A DNA stretch of 12,263 bases from Candidatus Hodarchaeota archaeon. GTDB lineage: Archaea > Asgardarchaeota > Heimdallarchaeia > Hodarchaeales > Hodarchaeaceae. This document shows positions 2,731 to 12,263 of this stretch, one piece after another. The stretch covers positions 1-12,263 of the forward strand of contig JAEOTC010000021.1 of assembly GCA_016840035.1 (NCBI GenBank), in the 5' to 3' direction. Below the pieces are notes generated by a model. That model had not been told where the DNA came from. It was given only the letters and a program-made list of their open reading frames with translations, and made no database searches. The stretch's first letter is position 1, and each line of letters opens with the position of its first letter. A program made the translations under genes and the position numbers.

Positions 2731-4512
2731 TCAAATTCGACGTGCCTGTTTTAACAACTCTTGATGTGTAATCCTGAAGTAGGTAGGCCGTCCATGGGCA
2801 CATATATGCGGATTTTCAGTTTTTGCTAGATGTGAGAGTAATTCTCGTGTTTGACGAAACGATAATTGATCTCCCGAGCGGTAAGACGTATGACAAGCAA
2901 TAACACTCAATATTTGTGTGATTTCATCTTTGAATATTGAAGTATCAATCTTTGACGAAAGTAATTCAAAAAATCCTTCAATATTTGTTTTTGAAAGAAT
3001 TTGTGGGATACCGTGTACTTCAATCACGTCAGTATAGTTTTTGGGAATACGGATATCAAAACCTAATTTAGAAAGCTGAGGAATTAGCCGTTCATCAACA
3101 TTGAATTTTGGAATTTTAAATGGTTGTAAAAGAGTTTGGATAGAGACTTTTCCTAGTTCATTTAAGTTAATTAATCGTTCAAGATTGACTCTTTCGTGAG
3201 CTGCATGAAAATCAAGAATGATCAAGTCATTTGAAGTCATATCCTCTAATAAGATAAATTCTTTTCCAAGATGTCCGCGGTAATTTAGATCTGCTCCTAT
3301 CAAATCAACTGTGTCAGCCGATGGAATAACATCACTTTTACCAGTAACAAATGGTGATTCATCACTGAAAGAAAGTTCAGTAGGAAGCGATTTCGGACGT
3401 AGTCGAAAACCATCACTTATCAGTGTACTGTTAGATGTTGTTGACTTTGATTGTGGAAAGTCTAATTGACTTCGTTGTTTCTTCAAGGCAACTGGGGTAA
3501 GTTGTGGAACCAAATTACTTGTCTTTAGACAATGATTTATCGCATTATAGATTGCTGTTCGGATCGATTTTTCGTCATAAAACAGGACTTCACGTTTTTG
3601 AGGATGAATATTGACGTCAAAATCCTGGGGGTCAATGTCTAGAAAGAGAAACGCGCAAGGGAATTCACTTTTCATTAAATATTCTCCATACCCTTCCTCT
3701 AACGCGTCTTGTATAATTTTAGAAATAATTTTTCGCCCATTAAGATAGAAAAACTGAAATTTACGATTTCGTTTATGAGAACCAGGCTTACTGATGTAAC
3801 CCATAATGGAAATGTTCCCATGGCCCACTACGCCCAAATTAAGCAATCCCTGTGCAATATCAGACCCAAATACTTTACGAATAGGAAACAAATAATCGGT
3901 AGCCCTAATTGTGTGAATTAGTATCTTCCCATCTGCGGTTAGTTTAAATGAAATCGCAGGATGAGCAACAGCATATTGGGCAATAATATCATAAATATAT
4001 CCTTGTTCGATGTAGGCCTTTTTTAGAAATTTTCGACGGACAATGAAATTGAAGAAGAGGTCTTTTACCCGAATAATTGTTCCTGAATTCGCAAGGATTT
4101 CTTCAGAGATAATAGCTTTTTCAATATCTCCAGTGACATCCACTTTTATAGCGATTTCGTCTTCATCTCTACGACTAAGTATTGAGAATCTGGAAACAGA
4201 AGCAATGGAATAGAGTGCTTCTCCACGAAATCCCATGGTATTTATCTGGGCAAGATCTTCTTCAGATTGAATTTTACTAGTGGAATGCCGCTGTATTGCG
4301 ATTGGTAATTCGTCAGCTTTAATTCCCTTCCCATTATCATGAATTTCAATAAGATCTTTTCCTCCCTCAACAATAGTAAGAGAAATTTCAGTAGCTCCCG
4401 CGTCTATGGCATTCTCTACTAATTCTTTCACAACTGAGGCTGGACGTTCAATTACTTCACCCGCTGCAATTTTACTGATCACCAATGGATCAAGAACCTG
4501 TAGTTTGGTCAT
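2731..4512 (-). CDS. mutL: DNA mismatch repair endonuclease MutL
   Basis: KIAAGEVIERPASVVKELVENAIDAGA, DNGKGI, RHSTSKI and GFRGEAL (GHKL ATPase), DVNIHPQKREV, and C-terminal endonuclease motifs DFHAAHERVNLE, ACH and CAHGRP. Start placed at ATG 4512 (MTKLQVLD), 4 nt after the mutS stop, rather than at 4542. Confidence 0.97.
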   Translation of the reverse strand: MTKLQVLDPLVISKIAAGEVIERPASVVKELVENAIDAGATEISLTIVEGGKDLIEIHDNGKGIKADELPIAIQRHSTSKIQSEEDLAQINTMGFRGEALYSIASVSRFSILSRRDEDEIAIKVDVTGDIEKAIISEEILANSGTIIRVKDLFFNFIVRRKFLKKAYIEQGYIYDIIAQYAVAHPAISFKLTADGKILIHTIRATDYLFPIRKVFGSDIAQGLLNLGVVGHGNISIMGYISKPGSHKRNRKFQFFYLNGRKIISKIIQDALEEGYGEYLMKSEFPCAFLFLDIDPQDFDVNIHPQKREVLFYDEKSIRTAIYNAINHCLKTSNLVPQLTPVALKKQRSQLDFPQSKSTTSNSTLISDGFRLRPKSLPTELSFSDESPFVTGKSDVIPSADTVDLIGADLNYRGHLGKEFILLEDMTSNDLIILDFHAAHERVNLERLINLNELGKVSIQTLLQPFKIPKFNVDERLIPQLSKLGFDIRIPKNYTDVIEVHGIPQILSKTNIEGFFELLSSKIDTSIFKDEITQILSVIACHTSYRSGDQLSFRQTRELLSHLAKTENPHICAHGRPTYFRITHQELLKQARRI

Positions 4513-4516
4513 TATT

Positions 4517-7252
4517 TTAGTACTCCTTGATCTGTTGTTCAAGCTTCTGCAGCTCTAGGACTAGCTCCTCAAGTTGTTTTAACGCTTCAATTGGAGTTTT
4601 ATAATTCACATCAATACCTGTATAACTTTTAAGAAACGCTAAGATCGTAATTTTCATATCTTTGAGTTTCTCTTCATATTTTTCTTTAGATATATTTTGA
4701 GATAATGCTTCAGCTAATGATAATTGACGAGGTTGTCCTTTCATTTCCCCAACTGCTTTCTTCATTGGAATACTACTGGAGGTTGACTCTAATTCCAAGA
4801 GCTTCTTTTGAGCATTATGGATGACACTTTGGGGAACTCCAGCCATTTTTGCTACACTAATTCCAAATGAATGGTCAGTTGCTCCTTGATGCAGTTTATA
4901 CAACAGCATTAACTCTCCATTACGCTCTTTAGCTGTTAAATGGAAGTTTTTAACCTTTGGTGACCGTTCTACTAGTTCACTTAATTGATGATAATGAGTA
5001 GCAAAAAGTGTTTTACATTTAATGTTCGTAACGATATGTTCAGCAATTGCCCACGCTAAAGAAAGACCATCATACGTACTTGTACCTCGGCCTACCTCAT
5101 CCAAGATAACTAAAGAGCGATCTGTCGCGTTATGTAAGATATGTGAGGTTTCAAGCATTTCTAACATGAATGTTGACTGACCAAAAGCTAAGCGATCAAA
5201 AGCTCCCACTCGAGTAAAAATTTTATCAACAATCCCGAACTCAAAGGACTGAGCAGGAACCCATGAACCTGATTGGGCCATTAATACCATTAAAGCCACT
5301 TGACGAATCAAAGTCGATTTACCTGACATATTAGGACCAGTAATTATATGGAGTTCGCTTCCCCCAAGATGGATTGAATTAGGTACGAAACCTGTTTCCT
5401 GTTGGAGATACTCCACAACGGCATGACGACCCTCTTGAATCTTGATTGTAGAATCAGCAATGATTTTAGGCTGGCAATATTTGTTTTTGAGAGCTGTGGA
5501 AGCAAAACAAGTTAATACGTCTAATTCCGCTAATAAATCTGAAAAAAGTTTGACCTGAGTCAAAGATTCAGAAATTTTATCACGAACTTCACAAAAAAGG
5601 TTGTATTCCAAGTCAATTATCTTCTCATCCAAATTTAAAATCTGTTCTTCTATCTCTTTTAATTTTGGGGTAATAAACCGTTCTGCACCCACTAAGGTCT
5701 GACGTCGAGTATAATCCGAGGGAATTGAATCCTCTCCTGCATCCCGTAATTGAGCTTTGGTAGCTTCAATGTAATAACCATGAACTGAATTGTACCCAAG
5801 CTTGATGTTAAATGGGGTCCGTTCTTGTTCAAAGACTTCTACTTCTCCTAAAATGTTTTTCTGGTTATTTTTCAATTCATAGAGTTTGAATAGCTCTCCA
5901 TGATATTCGGGTTTAATAATACCTCCTTCTGTTATTTTAGTAGGGGGATCTTCATGAATAGATTGCTCAATTAAACTTCTAATATCTATAAGATCTGTTG
6001 AATTAAAAGTAATAATTCTTTGCGAAATATCACTATCTAAAGGATTATTTGAGAGAAATTGTTGAATATCGAGACTTATAGTAATAGAATTCTTAAGAGT
6101 GGTGAGATCTCTTCCGTTGGCAGAGTGGTATTTAATTTTCGAAATTAAACGTGGGAAGTCAGATAATGAAGCAATGAGCTGGTTGATTTGGTCACACAGG
6201 TCAGGGTTTGAGAAAAAGGCTTGAACGGCATCTAAACGGGCATTAATAGTGTTAATATCGCGTAAAGGTTGTAATAACCATCTCCTTAACAAACGGGCTC
6301 CTGTACTAGAATTTATATCAGAATAAACTGATAATAGACTTCCAGTAATCTGACCATCAAACGCATTCCCTATGATTTCTAGATTTCTTTGTGTATTCGA
6401 ATCCAAAATAAGGGAGGATTCATCATCAAGGAGTTTGAGAGTGGTAAGGTTTGAGGGATAATCTGGTTTTAGCATGGCTAAATGGGAGATAACAGCTCCT
6501 GTAGCCCGAATTCCCTCTTCCATAGATTCGCATCCAAAACCTGCTAAGGATTTAACTTGAAAGTGGTTCAAAAGGGTTTCTTTAGCAGTTCCTAGGTTGA
6601 AAATTGTTTCATTAACAGGAGAAATCATAGTTTTGGAGGAAAGATTAATAATATTCTCAATCGCTAGTTGTAATTGTCCTTTCTGAGTTATCTCGGGTAA
6701 AATTATTTCTTTTGGACTGAATCGAGTGAATTCATCATTAAAACGCTCAATAATGTTATTATTAATTTCAGAAACAATCAATTCACCTGTTGATATGTCA
6801 ACAAAGGATAAACCGAGACTCTTTGTACGTTCATTAATTACTAAACTTAACATGAAATTATTTATCTTATCTTCCAAAATTGAGGATTCAAAAACTGTAC
6901 CTGGAGTTACAACACGAGTAACTCCCCGTTTAACAATTCTACCAGACGGAAGTTTCTTGGCATCTTCCAATTGATCAACAATCGCAACTTTGTATCCATT
7001 ATCAATTAATTTCTTCAAATATGAATCAATAGCCTTGATAGGAATACCAGCTAAAGGTATACGAGTATTTCCAACTCCCATACTTCGAGATGTTAGAGTA
7101 ATATTGAGGGCTTTCGATATAATCTTAGCGTCATCATTGAAAGTTTCGTAAAAGTCACCTAGCTGAAAAAAAACAATAGTATCTGGATAATCTTTCTTGA
7201 TATCCTCATATTGTGTCATTGCAGGAGTTTTTCTGCGAGGTTTTGAGCGCAT
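4517..7252 (-). CDS. mutS: DNA mismatch repair protein MutS (MutS1 type)
   Basis: TPAMTQY..K..YPD and GDFYE mismatch-recognition motif, ITGPNMSGKST Walker A, IFTRVGAFD, STFMLEM, ILDEVGRGTST, FATHYHQL and SFGISVAKMAG. Start is either ATG 7252 or TTG 7297. Confidence 0.97.
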   Translation of the reverse strand: MRSKPRRKTPAMTQYEDIKKDYPDTIVFFQLGDFYETFNDDAKIISKALNITLTSRSMGVGNTRIPLAGIPIKAIDSYLKKLIDNGYKVAIVDQLEDAKKLPSGRIVKRGVTRVVTPGTVFESSILEDKINNFMLSLVINERTKSLGLSFVDISTGELIVSEINNNIIERFNDEFTRFSPKEIILPEITQKGQLQLAIENIINLSSKTMISPVNETIFNLGTAKETLLNHFQVKSLAGFGCESMEEGIRATGAVISHLAMLKPDYPSNLTTLKLLDDESSLILDSNTQRNLEIIGNAFDGQITGSLLSVYSDINSSTGARLLRRWLLQPLRDINTINARLDAVQAFFSNPDLCDQINQLIASLSDFPRLISKIKYHSANGRDLTTLKNSITISLDIQQFLSNNPLDSDISQRIITFNSTDLIDIRSLIEQSIHEDPPTKITEGGIIKPEYHGELFKLYELKNNQKNILGEVEVFEQERTPFNIKLGYNSVHGYYIEATKAQLRDAGEDSIPSDYTRRQTLVGAERFITPKLKEIEEQILNLDEKIIDLEYNLFCEVRDKISESLTQVKLFSDLLAELDVLTCFASTALKNKYCQPKIIADSTIKIQEGRHAVVEYLQQETGFVPNSIHLGGSELHIITGPNMSGKSTLIRQVALMVLMAQSGSWVPAQSFEFGIVDKIFTRVGAFDRLAFGQSTFMLEMLETSHILHNATDRSLVILDEVGRGTSTYDGLSLAWAIAEHIVTNIKCKTLFATHYHQLSELVERSPKVKNFHLTAKERNGELMLLYKLHQGATDHSFGISVAKMAGVPQSVIHNAQKKLLELESTSSSIPMKKAVGEMKGQPRQLSLAEALSQNISKEKYEEKLKDMKITILAFLKSYTGIDVNYKTPIEALKQLEELVLELQKLEQQIKEY

Positions 7253-7319
7253 AGGAGTCAATTCACATATCTTTCTAATATACGAAGTTTTAGCCAAATG
7301 GAAAATATTTAATCACAAT

Positions 7320-7334: not shown

Positions 7335-7436
7335 CTGTTAAGGGGAAAATTACGCCTCTCCATGAAAAAATCCTTAAGAGGAAAAAAGACAAGGAAAAAC
7401 GAGAAAAGATTTCAGATATAATGAAAAACAACTACT

Positions 7437-7521
7437 GCGGGGATTTCCCAGTCTGGTCAAAGGAGCTAGGTTCAGGTCCTAGTCGTGTAGACGTTCGTGA
7501 GTTCAAATCTCACTCCCCGCA
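7437..7521 (+). tRNA. tRNA-Leu(CAG), intronless, CCA not encoded
   Basis: Acceptor GCGGGGA/TCCCCGC plus discriminator A; anticodon arm CTAGG-TTCAGGT-CCTAG (CAG at 7473-7475); long variable arm; T arm GTGAG-TTCAAAT-CTCAC. Confidence 0.96.
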
Positions 7522-7539
7522 TCCTTAATATTCCAATTT

Positions 7540-7875: not shown

Positions 7876-7914
7876 AGAACTAAGTAATTATTTACTACTA
7901 CATTGGTGATTTTT

Positions 7915-8784
7915 TTGGATATCGAAAAAGCGATTTCAGAGATACAGGAGAAGTTTGGGGTAGTTGGACGAGAGCGTACGCTTCGAAAACTCATCCTTGG
8001 CAAAATGGCTAGCAAACATATCATAATTGAAGGGCCCGTAGGGGTTGGAAAAACGACATTGGCTCATGCAGTAGCCGCTTACTTTGATCAAGGGTTCATT
8101 CGAATTGATGGGGATGAACGATACACCGAAAGTAAACTGGTTGGACACTTCGAACCCCCTCTTGTTGTAGAAAAAGGGTGGATATGGGATGCATTTGTAC
8201 CAGGGCCGTTAACCTTAGCAATGAAAAATGGATCGATTCTGTTTATTAATGAAGCTAATCGACTAATAGAAGGGACGCAAAACGTACTTTTACCGTCAAT
8301 GGATGAAGGAATACTCATATTACCAAAATTAGGGGTAATAAAAGCAGTAGAAGGATTTTTAGTGGTTGCTACACAAAATCCAGAGTCATACATTGGAACA
8401 ACAGTGCTTTCTGAAGCATTAAAGGATCGGTTCGTATGGATCAAACTTGAGAATCAAGGATACGAAGCAGAACTTGATATTGTTAAACAGAAAGCCAATA
8501 TAGATGATAAAGATATATTAATCGCTGAAACATCAACAAAAATCACTCGTGCAACACGTAATCATCCTGATGTACGAAGAGGATCTTCAATTCGAGGTGC
8601 CATAGACTTAGCAAAAATACTAAGTTTGGTACAAAGTTTAACCCTTGAAACAGTGTCAGAATTATCTATTATGACCATTGCCACAAAAATTGAACTCGAA
8701 GATGGTGTAGAGAGACCCATCGAAGAAATTATCCATGAAATCGCAGAAGCGATACTCTCTGGGGACGAAGACCGTTTTTTATAA
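7915..8784 (+). CDS. MoxR-family AAA+ ATPase
   Basis: Walker A EGPVGVGKT, Walker B variant LFINEANR, QNVLLPSMDEG, sensor I ATQNP, ALKDRF arginine finger and GSSIRG sensor II. TTG at 7915 follows a GGTGAT SD; the ORF track start is 7903. Confidence 0.92.
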   Translation: MDIEKAISEIQEKFGVVGRERTLRKLILGKMASKHIIIEGPVGVGKTTLAHAVAAYFDQGFIRIDGDERYTESKLVGHFEPPLVVEKGWIWDAFVPGPLTLAMKNGSILFINEANRLIEGTQNVLLPSMDEGILILPKLGVIKAVEGFLVVATQNPESYIGTTVLSEALKDRFVWIKLENQGYEAELDIVKQKANIDDKDILIAETSTKITRATRNHPDVRRGSSIRGAIDLAKILSLVQSLTLETVSELSIMTIATKIELEDGVERPIEEIIHEIAEAILSGDEDRFL

Positions 8785-8843
8785 GGAAATCCCGAGTAGC
8801 CGCTCGGGAATATAAGAAGAACATTCGTCTCTTCGGTAGGCTA
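8775..8843 (+). promoter_or_regulatory. Candidate -1 programmed ribosomal frameshift signal (slippery heptamer plus stimulatory structure)
   Basis: T_TTT_TTA at 8775-8781 is in the MoxR frame, followed by an 8-nt spacer and the stem TCCCGAGT-AGCC-GCTCGGGA (8790-8809). The -1 frame has no stop from 8739 through the vWA ORF. Confidence 0.7.
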
Positions 8844-8846
8844 AAT

Positions 8847-9851
8847 ATGGAGGATTTAGCAGAGGCAGCAATCGCAGCAGGTGACTCTCTACCCAAACTG
8901 GACAAACTAGATATTGCTAGCATAGAACGGTTGACAGAATCCGCGATTGAACACGAAAATTTACCCGCATTGATGTCTTTGGCAAAAATCAATAAGTATG
9001 CAGTCTCCAATAGTTTGAATCCGGAGCGATTGGTGTCACTAGGAAGAGTAGCAGGATCAGGAGGCGTATATACCCCCCGATTGTTCTTTGTAATGCGAGG
9101 AGTTCTAGATAGGAAGCGAAGAAAAATTTTGAAACGGTTAACACGTACATCTATTCTCAAACTATCTCTGAGAATCGCTTCTGAAGGGTTACGTGGAGAT
9201 CTTCCCATACGAGGAGAATTTCAACCTGACTCTGACTTCGATCTCGAAGCCACGATGGAGCAAGTTTTAGAAAGATATCCTGCAGGAATTCCAAGACTTA
9301 GCAATACAGATATAATCGGTATTGAACGTCATGAACGAAAGAAAAATGGCGTATTAATCCTAGATGCTAGTGGATCCATGATGGGAGAACGAAATATCAA
9401 TGCTGCTCTCTCAGCTGCGGTCATGGCTTTTTCAATGCGGAAAGATCAGTTTGGTGTCGTTGCATTTAATACCAAAGGGTTTTTGATTAAAGGAATCAAA
9501 GATGACCTGAAAATCGAGGATATTATGGATAAAATTCTTGATTTAGAGGCAGTAGGCTATACTAATATCGAAGATGGTCTGAGAGTGGGTGCTATTCAAA
9601 TTAAAAATTTGAAAACTCGTTATAAATGGGCCATATTACTGACTGATGGAGCATATAATAAGGGAGATGATCCCCGCTACTTATGTCGTCAATTCGAGAA
9701 ATTACATGTCATCAATTTACCTGGAGGGAAAAAATGGGGAGAAAAGGTTTGTCAAGATCTTGCCCGATTGGGTGGAGGCCGATATGTTGTGGTCCGCAAT
9801 TATCATGAAGTACCACGAGCATTAATGAAAGTTCTCAGAAGTCCTTGGTAA
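8847..9851 (+). CDS. von Willebrand factor A (vWA) domain protein, MoxR partner; possibly translated as the C-terminal half of a frameshift fusion
   Basis: Complete MIDAS: LILDASGSM (DxSxS), GYTN (T) and LLTDG (D). DFDLEATME resembles the pre-vWA segment of ChlD/CoxE-like proteins. The frame is open upstream to 8739. Confidence 0.9.
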   Translation: MEDLAEAAIAAGDSLPKLDKLDIASIERLTESAIEHENLPALMSLAKINKYAVSNSLNPERLVSLGRVAGSGGVYTPRLFFVMRGVLDRKRRKILKRLTRTSILKLSLRIASEGLRGDLPIRGEFQPDSDFDLEATMEQVLERYPAGIPRLSNTDIIGIERHERKKNGVLILDASGSMMGERNINAALSAAVMAFSMRKDQFGVVAFNTKGFLIKGIKDDLKIEDIMDKILDLEAVGYTNIEDGLRVGAIQIKNLKTRYKWAILLTDGAYNKGDDPRYLCRQFEKLHVINLPGGKKWGEKVCQDLARLGGGRYVVVRNYHEVPRALMKVLRSPW

Positions 9852-10590
9852 GGACTTTAAACCATTTTTCTTTAGATAAAAGCTGGTTTAGGCGATCAGG
9901 GAAGTTAGTGAGGATTCCATCTACACCCAAAGCAACGACATGTTTCATCTCGGGGATTTCATCAGCAAAAAAATAGAATACTCGAATATCATGATCATGA
10001 CACTGTTGAATAAACGAGGGATTCAACGCACGTTGTCGAATTTGTGCTGTGTTGACTTCTAAGTGAAGTAATAGATCAAAATACTCCTCATTCGATCGGT
10101 CTTTTTGCAATAATCCACATTCAACGGAACTATCAATTGATTGAATACGTTGGATGTTTTCAATGTGTCTGGCCATAATTATAGCTCTTTTTTCTATATG
10201 ATGTTTATGAATCATTGAAACAACCGATTTCTCAAACCAATCAGAGTGTTTATCATAAAATTTTAATTCAATATTAAATTGAAGGGGTGAAGGAATTAGA
10301 ACTAACATTTCTGCTAATGTAGGAATTTGTTCCCCCTGAAAACGAGGATCAAACCAACTACCAGCATCTAAACTTCGTAAATATTGAAAAGATGATTCAA
10401 AGAGTGGTCCTTGCCCATTAGTGGTTCTTTCTATTCCTTGGCGATCGTGAAAAATCATAAGATGGTGATCACAAGAGGGTTGGACATCAAATTCAATCAT
10501 ATCAGCATATTTAATCCCCTCGTTAACGCAAGAGATGGTATTTTCAGGCGCTAAGCCTGCTCCTCCACGATGGGCAATATTTAGCACCAT
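9835..10590 (-). CDS. Glycerophosphodiester phosphodiesterase (GDPD/UgpQ family), cytoplasmic
   Basis: IAHRGGAGLAPENT, IEFDVQ, IFHD, ERTTNG, LDAGSWF, IPTLAE, NIELK and GVDGILTNFPD. No signal peptide. Overlaps the vWA 3' end by 17 nt. Confidence 0.93.
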   Translation of the reverse strand: MVLNIAHRGGAGLAPENTISCVNEGIKYADMIEFDVQPSCDHHLMIFHDRQGIERTTNGQGPLFESSFQYLRSLDAGSWFDPRFQGEQIPTLAEMLVLIPSPLQFNIELKFYDKHSDWFEKSVVSMIHKHHIEKRAIIMARHIENIQRIQSIDSSVECGLLQKDRSNEEYFDLLLHLEVNTAQIRQRALNPSFIQQCHDHDIRVFYFFADEIPEMKHVVALGVDGILTNFPDRLNQLLSKEKWFKVLTKDF

Positions 10591-10741: not shown

Positions 10742-12263
10742 TTGAGGAGAAATAAGAGTTTTAAAACGAGTTATATCGTATTTACAGTATTTGGATTGAT
10801 TATTACGTTATTATTAAGTTTTACAACGAGTTCGTTGACATCGAGTACACCACTCGAAGAAGTATCTATTGAAGATGCAATAACTAATGAACTGGGATAT
10901 ACTTTTACTGGGCAAGCAGCTTACGACTGGGCTGGAAATTATATCTCTACAATCGGTGATATTAATCAAGATAGTTATGATGATTTCCTTATTAGTGCTA
11001 TGAAAGGAAATGGTTCAACTGGAGAAGTATATCTTATTTATGGTCGTTCTAATGACCAGTGGAATAACATGAATTTAATGGATGCAGATGCCTCCTTTGT
11101 GGGAGAAGAAGTTGGTTCAAGCACAGGTCAGTGGCTTGCGGCAATAGGTGATATCAATCAGGATACGTATCCCGATTTTGCAATTGCTGCTCCACGAAAT
11201 AATGAATCTGGGAATTGGGCAGGACAAACATACATAATTTTTGGTAGTGATAGTTCTCAATGGACAAAGGATTATTCCCTTTCTCAAGTTAACGCTTCTT
11301 ATTTAGGAGAAGTTAGTTTTGATTATTCAGGCCATGGCCTTGCAGGATTAGGAGATATCAATGGTGATGGAATAGATGATTTCGCGATTAGTGCTGAAGG
11401 AAGTGACGAAAATGCACTCGATGCAGGTCAGGTCTATATAATCTTTGGTAGATCATCAAATACTTGGACAATGGATACCTCTTTAGCTCAAGCGAATGCC
11501 TCTTTGGTCGGTAATGAAACAAACCTCCTTTTGGGAGCAGATTTAGCAGGAGTAGGAGATGTCAATAAAGATGGAGTAGATGACTTTATCATGGGAGCAT
11601 ATCGAGTTGTAAATACTAAAAGATATAGATATGCTTACCTTGTTTTTGGAAAAGAACAAGGATGGGGAATGGGATCTTCAATAGAAACAGCTAACGTAAC
11701 ATTTGTCTTAGAGGAGGTACCTGAAGTAACAATGTGGCCTATCTCAGGAGATTTCATTTCTGGAGTTAATGATGTAAATCACGACGGATATGACGATATC
11801 TTGATAGGAGGAATACGGAGTGATCAGGGAGGAATAGATGCAGGTAGTGGTTATCTATTTTTGGGAAGAGCAACAGCTAGCTGGCAGAATCAATATTTAA
11901 AAGAGAATGCAGACGTTATCTTCACTGGAGAATCAGCAGATGGATGGGCGGGATGGTCTGTGGGAAGTGCTGGTGATGTGAATAAGGATACCTATGATGA
12001 TCTCTTGATTGGGGCAGTAAATTTATTTAATCCCTCAAGTGAAGGTAAAACCTATCTGATCCTCGGAAAAGAAAGCTGGACGACTAGCTCCTCTTTAAGT
12101 AATGCAGATTATATTTACACTCAAAAAAATGTAGGGGATGGTCTTGGATTCCATGTTGCAGGGATCGGGGATGTAAATAACGATGATCAGGATGATATTG
12201 CGATAGGGGCAATATTTAATGATCAAAATGGACCTGATGCAGGAATTGTCTATATGTCACTAA
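10742..12263 (+). CDS. Secreted/surface FG-GAP repeat (integrin-alpha-like beta-propeller) protein, 3' truncated; not in the ORF track
   Basis: GGAGGT SD at 10727-10732 and TTG start. MRRNKSFKTSYIVFTVFGLIITLLLSF is a signal or TM segment. Seven repeats: GDINQDSYDD, GDINQDTYPD, GDINGDGIDD, GDVNKDGVDD, NDVNHDGYDD, GDVNKDTYDD, GDVNNDDQDD, mostly followed by G.VY..FG-type strands. Open for 507 codons to the window end. Confidence 0.92.
   Translation, partial: MRRNKSFKTSYIVFTVFGLIITLLLSFTTSSLTSSTPLEEVSIEDAITNELGYTFTGQAAYDWAGNYISTIGDINQDSYDDFLISAMKGNGSTGEVYLIYGRSNDQWNNMNLMDADASFVGEEVGSSTGQWLAAIGDINQDTYPDFAIAAPRNNESGNWAGQTYIIFGSDSSQWTKDYSLSQVNASYLGEVSFDYSGHGLAGLGDINGDGIDDFAISAEGSDENALDAGQVYIIFGRSSNTWTMDTSLAQANASLVGNETNLLLGADLAGVGDVNKDGVDDFIMGAYRVVNTKRYRYAYLVFGKEQGWGMGSSIETANVTFVLEEVPEVTMWPISGDFISGVNDVNHDGYDDILIGGIRSDQGGIDAGSGYLFLGRATASWQNQYLKENADVIFTGESADGWAGWSVGSAGDVNKDTYDDLLIGAVNLFNPSSEGKTYLILGKESWTTSSSLSNADYIYTQKNVGDGLGFHVAGIGDVNNDDQDDIAIGAIFNDQNGPDAGIVYMSL

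Follow-up and report, generated by a model that had tools for sequence, protein, structure and literature searches.

Known systems and the locus under study

The frameshifted chlD genes (fs-chlD; PMC3711429; PMC9227772) each produce a short AAA+ and a long AAA+-vWA subunit from one gene. They combine an AT-rich slippery site with a downstream structure, shift by -1 more commonly than by +1, have fused relatives and occur in bacteria and archaea. The same features, with the two products as a prediction, recur in the family described below, whose studied member is a MoxR-vWA pair in a window of 12,263 nucleotides (the whole stretch of Hodarchaeales DNA that was analysed). The analogy to frameshifted chlD, drawn by a previous, sequence-only reading of this DNA, holds in that a recoding site joins AAA+ and vWA and that fused relatives exist. 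Given this junction, the locus would work like fs-chlD, which is a statement on how it works and not on membership.

The pairs NorQ-NorD, CbbQ-CbbO, CobS-CobT and RavA-ViaA (PMC9976466) resemble the studied locus in another respect: an AAA_5/AAA_3 ATPase is matched with a vWA partner carrying a MIDAS and a predicted finger. The NorQ hexamer binds one NorD via a finger in its pore (PMC9976466). As for frameshifting itself, fucA1 of S. solfataricus is, according to a 2021 review, the sole chromosomal -1 frameshift in archaea with experimental proof; it shares the combination of a heptamer and a stem-loop with the locus (PMC8211752). Literature searches covering few subscription papers returned nothing on a programmed frameshift with MoxR and nothing linking Asgard archaea to a MoxR-vWA frameshift, in line with the earlier remark that no such description was known for this MoxR family in archaea. 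The comparisons reported here suggest that the two ORFs are very probably a single recoded gene, from whose one message -1 ribosomal frameshifting would yield short and long subunits.

Anatomy of the locus

All features of the locus lie on the plus strand. The MoxR-type AAA+ ATPase ORF, encoding the short product, occupies positions 7903-8784 (frame 0), with TTG 7903, GTG 7906 or TTG 7915 as candidate starts (293 to 289 amino acids). Its 3' end reads CGT TTT TTA TAA: the slippery heptamer T_TTT_TTA (8775-8781) is phased as X_XXY_YYZ on the MoxR frame and stands directly 5' of the TAA stop (8782-8784), which in relatives may be TAA, TAG or TGA. The stop makes up the first 3 nt of an 8-nt spacer (8782-8789), a length within the 5-9 nt expected of an RNA structure stimulating a -1 frameshift. 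The spacer leads to a candidate stimulatory hairpin (8790-8809), a plain hairpin with a 7-8 bp stem. Its eight pairs (seven Watson-Crick and one U-G) have a predicted stability of -13.4 kcal/mol (z = -3.5), equalled by 0 of 200 shuffles.

The -1 frame, free of stops from 8739 to 9851, is the vWA frame. Upstream of the annotated Met it contains a 22-codon linker (8781-8846), translated only via recoding or an unusual start, of which the first 18 residues are predicted to be disordered. The remainder of the vWA ORF (8847-9851) encodes a helical domain, a beta-hairpin finger and the vWA domain. The heptamer, the TAA, the spacer, the 8-bp hairpin and the open -1 frame running through the linker into the vWA are thus all present as the sequence-only reading had described them. 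Its product lengths of 289 and 645 residues apply to a start at TTG 7915; a start at TTG 7903 gives an ATPase of 293 and a trans-frame product of 649 residues instead.

The neighbours are a tRNA-Leu, mutS/mutL and a phosphodiesterase. A tRNA-Leu(CAG) gene (7436-7524) lies upstream of the MoxR gene, a mutL-mutS pair occupies 2731-7297 on the minus strand, and a glycerophosphodiester phosphodiesterase gene (9835-10590, minus strand) overlaps the end of the vWA ORF by 17 nt with its own end. Further on, a secreted-looking repeat protein (10742-12262) is cut off by the end of the contig. Only within the genus do mutS and the phosphodiesterase keep their place beside the pair; in general, conservation of the neighbours stops at the genus or family, and no conserved client gene was found among them.

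Protein identity

The pair is NorQ/CbbQ-like MoxR-vWA and not a chelatase. The ATPase ORF matches the Pfam families AAA_5 (E 1.4e-18) and AAA_3 (E 1.7e-13) and has no Mg_chelatase match, and the model of a 66%-identical relative (P0001) best matches NorQ/CbbQ, with TM-scores of 0.80-0.87. Walker A, sensor and arginine-finger motifs are invariant; Walker B (window 8230-8270) reads N-E, and not the canonical hhhhDE, in 94 of 99 family members. The vWA ORF matches VWA_2, VWA_3 and VWA_CoxE. Its structure model (pLDDT 82) displays a beta-hairpin finger at about 9180-9340, and its best fold matches are the NorD VWA in NorQD complexes, followed by BatB and the MIDAS of MDN1/Rea1. The MIDAS motif D-x-S-x-S is found at 9363-9377 and is accompanied by the vWA-frame residues T261 and D289; these two and D195, S197 and S199 are invariant in the alignment.

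A chelatase identity was rejected on scores of 19-29 bits against cut-offs of 467-779 (TIGR02030, TIGR02031, TIGR02442). Pfam, profile scores and fold all agree with the non-chelatase assignment made earlier. No cobN/chlH gene (PF02514) was found in the host genome, which is 87% complete; this is weak evidence, some fs-chlD genomes also having none (PMC9227772). An orthologue of GvpN, NorQ or CbbQ was likewise discarded, the GvpN score being 89.7 bits against a cut-off of 266.8 and a cognate operon being absent. So was midasin (Rea1) orthology: there is a single AAA module here, and the top sequence rank of midasin arises only from summed repeats. Its best single module reaches 44 bits, below MoxR (67) and NorQ (56), so no special kinship to midasin is indicated.

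Conservation of the site within the genus

Taken alone, the host genome says little. Of its long frames (2585 in all), 51 have a strict heptamer at their end and 115 are overlapped by a long -1 frame. Three combine both features against about 2.3 expected, so the combination is not significant in a single genome, and the significance of the frameshift site comes from its conservation across genomes. The studied locus accounts for one of the three cases and a MoxR-vWA paralogue on contig C292 for another, and in each of these two the hairpin is strong. In the paralogue (L071, minus strand, stop at 50577-50579), A_AAA_AAC directly precedes TAG and is followed by the hairpin, and the -1 frame of 344 codons carries VWA_CoxE. 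The third case, on contig C98 near 29919 (plus strand), has G_GGA_AAA before the stop and a 339-codon -1 frame, but its hairpin is weak and a start codon follows after 29 nt.

Offset (-1) and heptamer are identical in all 19 other loci of the genus. Among named records, 'Ca. Heimdallarchaeota' genomes, for instance CP070695 and B3_Heim, come closest. Over the last 230 MoxR codons of 17 same-genus genomes, 166 degenerate columns are invariant in amino acid and only 7 of these in codon, three of the seven being the final CGT, TTT and TTA. Two codons of the hairpin stem are fixed as well (TCC 17/17, CGG 17/17), while the loop codons change amino acid freely. By this comparison of sequences, the slip site and the offset are conserved beyond the needs of the protein. 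Stops in the linker, which the earlier reading had named as evidence against it, are absent from the -1 (vWA) frame in all 17 genomes (0/17) and present in the other two frames in 14/17 and 17/17; the -1 frame shows synonymous variation. Compensatory changes in the hairpin were found to a limited extent: 98% of stem cells are paired and one pair exhibits a two-sided change, but the stem is otherwise mostly invariant in the genus, with five invariant pairs.

Family-wide comparison

The wider comparison covers 140 non-redundant orthologous loci, which are related, so that their counts overstate independence and are not independent draws. Most Asgard families covered by the search have orthologues, as do some Thermococci, Hadarchaeota, Thermoplasmata and Thermoproteota. 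The frame offsets are not random: 108 loci are at -1, 14 at +1 and 18 are fused, with no ordinary in-frame pair, which answers the earlier question of whether orthologues share the offset. In every split locus (122 of 122), the vWA frame continues past the ATPase stop without interruption. A heptamer of the pattern X_XXY_YYZ (GGA/GGT being allowed for XXX) is found in the last seven codons of 96 of the 108 -1 loci, versus 3% of control windows, so the slippery site proposed from one sequence is conserved as a pattern. Four more -1 loci have a heptamer further upstream, and a small clade (L112, L194) has a -1 overlap without a clear heptamer. The letters vary by lineage and the pattern is kept (T_TTT_TTA/C, G_GAT_TTT, A_AAT_TTT, G_GGT_TTT); A_AAA_AAN heptamers are found in paralogues. 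In one genome (L051/L110, G023:C424), the MoxR match falls into two parts and a TAG lies near residue 75-83; this may be a broken gene or an assembly error.

On the family tree, at least 12 state changes were counted by a quick method, the tree being partly unresolved. As read from these sequences, the two-product outcome persists while the recoding mechanism changes.

RNA structure downstream of the slip site

In 61% of 70 divergent loci, the 40 nt following the site rank within the top 10% for stability when set against other windows of the same gene. A kink-turn-shaped pattern (GA-stem-loop-stem-RNU-GA) is found in 27-29 of 70 other -1 loci, L185, L102, L106, L097, L118, L127 and L056 among them, versus a background of 0.8-2%. 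It starts 8 or 11 nt past the slip site, and its stems change freely. None of the 21 loci from this genus and its order shows the pattern, and a kink-turn was therefore discarded for the studied locus, which has a plain hairpin instead. A literature search covering few subscription papers found nothing linking kink-turns to frameshift stimulation.

Other candidates for this region were also rejected. In a three-stem pseudoknot (8790-8843), the second stem is paired in 58.6% and the third in 77.6%, no better than shuffles. A minus-strand terminator would have no gene there to terminate, and a plus-strand terminator using the T run would cut the message before its stop codon. An Rfam search of the window matched only a tRNA.

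Natural fusions and other candidate recoding devices

In-frame fusions, which the sequence-only reading had suggested looking for, exist at 18 of the 140 loci. Long homologues number 429 at E <= 1e-40. The closest natural fusions (647-655 amino acids) are 58-65% identical in both halves and have a collinear linker; the motif IRLFG of the studied linker, 5' of Met8847, aligns with four of them (P0001-P0004). These collinear proteins support the fusion as a real product, as far as alignment can tell. No slippery site was found at the junctions of the closest fusions; Thermoplasmata, Bathyarchaeia and the close relatives P0001-P0003 have a plain fusion devoid of it. No ATPase-only gene was found beside fused orthologues, within 2.5-4 kb or genome-wide, nor was a second close ATPase copy found in five genomes with a fused, slip-less orthologue (most of them incomplete, one a chromosome). 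The short form would thus be dispensable in some lineages. One paralogous locus (L058, G044:C74), the sole such case, has a separate ATPase-only gene followed by a fused ATPase-vWA gene, a layout resembling chlI plus chlD.

The 14 loci at +1 (L044-L050, L052-L055, L095, L101, L197) all carry TTT_TTT_CGN, whose background is 0.0002 per codon. They belong to at least two separate clades and lack strong downstream structure; the shift may be -2 instead of +1, the frames alone being compatible with either. In four fused genes of a Njordarchaeota family (L230-L233, in G124, G119, G143 and G098), TTT_TTT_CGN is retained in the corresponding position although the flanking residues differ, and the +1 frame meets a stop after another 2-4 codons; a relative of these genomes (G151) has the split +1 type. 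A_AAA_AAA is retained in three fused paralogues, where the -1 frame meets a stop after another 2-3 codons. By analogy, fused genes with a retained slip site suggest an inverse, dnaX-like layout; the retention may also reflect a recent origin of these fusions.

In bacterial relatives, which score 213 bits on the ATPase profile, a single in-frame UGA lies within GGN_UGA_AGR in 64-65 of 65 loci and would make a readthrough candidate. These loci (L240:3880-3900, L241, L242-L321) come from Rhodococcus plasmids and metagenomes; their ATPase and vWA share one frame, and the UGA splitting them comes after Pro-Gly.

Proposed mechanism and alternative explanations

The proposed sequence of events is as follows. 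On most ribosomes, translation would end at TAA 8782 and yield a MoxR-type AAA+ subunit approximately 290 amino acids long. A minority would slip by -1 on U_UUU_UUA, where tRNA-Phe can re-pair perfectly on UUU, helped by a pause due to the hairpin 8 nt downstream and probably also to the adjacent stop codon. Slipped ribosomes would then produce an ATPase-linker-helical-vWA protein of about 645-649 amino acids. That the slippage is ribosomal, and its rate, we infer.

One alternative places the slip in transcription: the polymerase would add a U in the T6 run, and some mRNAs would encode the fusion in frame. The studied locus has T6, some relatives have as many as T7-T8 and paralogues have A7-A10, and fs-chlD efficiency tracked poly-A length (PMC3711429). 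Polymerase slippage is nevertheless associated with T runs longer than 8 or A runs longer than 7 (PMC3711429). Many orthologues have only T4 (G_GAT_TTT, G_GGT_TTT), yet keep the codon phase and a structure 8 nt downstream. Phase and spacing matter to ribosomes and not to the polymerase, which counts against this explanation and leaves it improbable.

MoxR and vWA are normally separate genes, and the locus could be read as two translationally coupled ones, the vWA starting at Met8847 or at the codon overlapping the stop, while the overlap, T run and hairpin would serve coupling or mRNA stability. The studied genome does have ATG 8847 with a weak SD-like GGTAGG (8835-8840) upstream, and TGA stops give an NTG overlap in the -1 frame (ATG in L002 and L019). 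The sequence-only reading had named a start at Met8847 with this SD as the finding that would tell against it; neither is conserved. Among the 17 genomes of the genus, position 8847 is ATG in 6 and Leu or Ile in 11, the SD-like sequence is not maintained, and the codon overlapping the stop is ATA in 16. Moreover, 23 of 119 split loci (five from this genus) lack an ATG, GTG or TTG upstream of the first conserved helix, and the residues preceding the Met show conservation and can be aligned with fused proteins. Coupling also leaves unexplained the fixed synonymous slip codons, the +1 motif and the sites kept inside fused genes, and is judged similarly improbable.

Finally, an assembly error or the recent pseudogenisation of a fused gene, suggested by a homopolymer run in a metagenome-assembled genome and by the existence of fused homologues, can practically be dismissed. 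More than 100 independent assemblies show the same offset, and these include two complete Heimdallarchaeum chromosomes (CP084166 and CP084167). Within the genus, the vWA frame has stayed intact, with 85-97% conservation. The T6A is identical in all 19 other loci of the genus (19 of 19), which come from separate assemblies and include the chromosome-level record CP070695; an indel at the T run is thereby excluded in practice.

With -1 ribosomal frameshifting as the preferred reading, the short and long subunits would probably share one hexamer, by analogy with NorQ-NorD, one vWA finger plugging the pore and the MIDAS gripping the client; this is held with less confidence than the frameshift itself. 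The shift rate would set the supply of adaptor-bearing subunits, and since a NorQ hexamer binds one NorD, a minority rate would correspond to approximately one vWA per ring. The role in ring stoichiometry put forward by the sequence-only reading is thus moderately likely at this locus, but not as a universal requirement, because the five slip-less fusion genomes show no second close ATPase copy.

A broader reading, tentative as a whole and put at slightly below even chances, is that one ancient MoxR-vWA family kept its two-product output and repeatedly swapped its recoding device: -1 with a plain hairpin in this genus, -1 with a kink-turn, +1 at UUU_CGN, the inverse dnaX-like layout and bacterial UGA readthrough. 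As joint parts of this tentative reading, the mixed ring, with approximately one vWA per hexamer, would be a midasin-like assembly produced through recoding, and the ribosomes of Asgard archaea would support -1 and +1 sites of the eukaryotic-virus type. The kink-turn stimulator might be bound by a protein such as L7Ae.

Comparison with known systems

The slip sites of the family recall those of viruses described in the literature (PMC5009743), the difference being that MoxR-vWA is a cellular archaeal gene. The heptamer of the studied locus is the U_UUU_UUA of HIV-1, a pattern match only. The commonest heptamer of its relatives is the G_GAU_UUU of PEMV, with the stop 3 nt downstream in the virus and one codon later in the relatives. 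The +1 motif matches UCC_UUU_CGU of influenza PA-X, again as a pattern only. In E. coli dnaX, long and short subunits of one ring arise from one gene, as would be the case in the fused Njordarchaeota-family genes; at the studied locus, in contrast, the short form would be the default. Midasin (Rea1/Mdn1) offers a further likeness, its six AAA modules carrying one MIDAS. The locus would also suggest a testable way in which MoxR machines reach their geometry of six ATPases and one vWA.

In MoxR/VWA pairs such as NorQ-NorD, the two partners are separate genes and proteins, whereas the adaptor here has no conserved start and would be attached to a copy of the ATPase; Walker B is N-E here and not D-E, and no client gene is nearby. 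If the recoding reading is true, the start of the vWA gene is misannotated in most Asgard genomes. The fucA1 frameshift is known from few strains and gives a short product without a known role, whereas the MoxR-vWA site is phylum-wide and both of its products look functional. If confirmed, it would be a phylum-wide case of -1 frameshifting among the closest archaeal relatives of eukaryotes, and its many natural sequence variants would lend themselves to studying how archaeal ribosomes shift frame.

The differences from fs-chlD concern the proteins, the sites and the distribution: the ATPase is neither ChlI nor ChlD, its fold is nearest to NorQ/CbbQ and the genome shows no cobN/chlH; the sites are U-rich here and A_AAA_AAR there; and the distribution here is centred on Asgard archaea. 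The principle of fs-chlD would thereby be extended to a non-chelatase chaperone.
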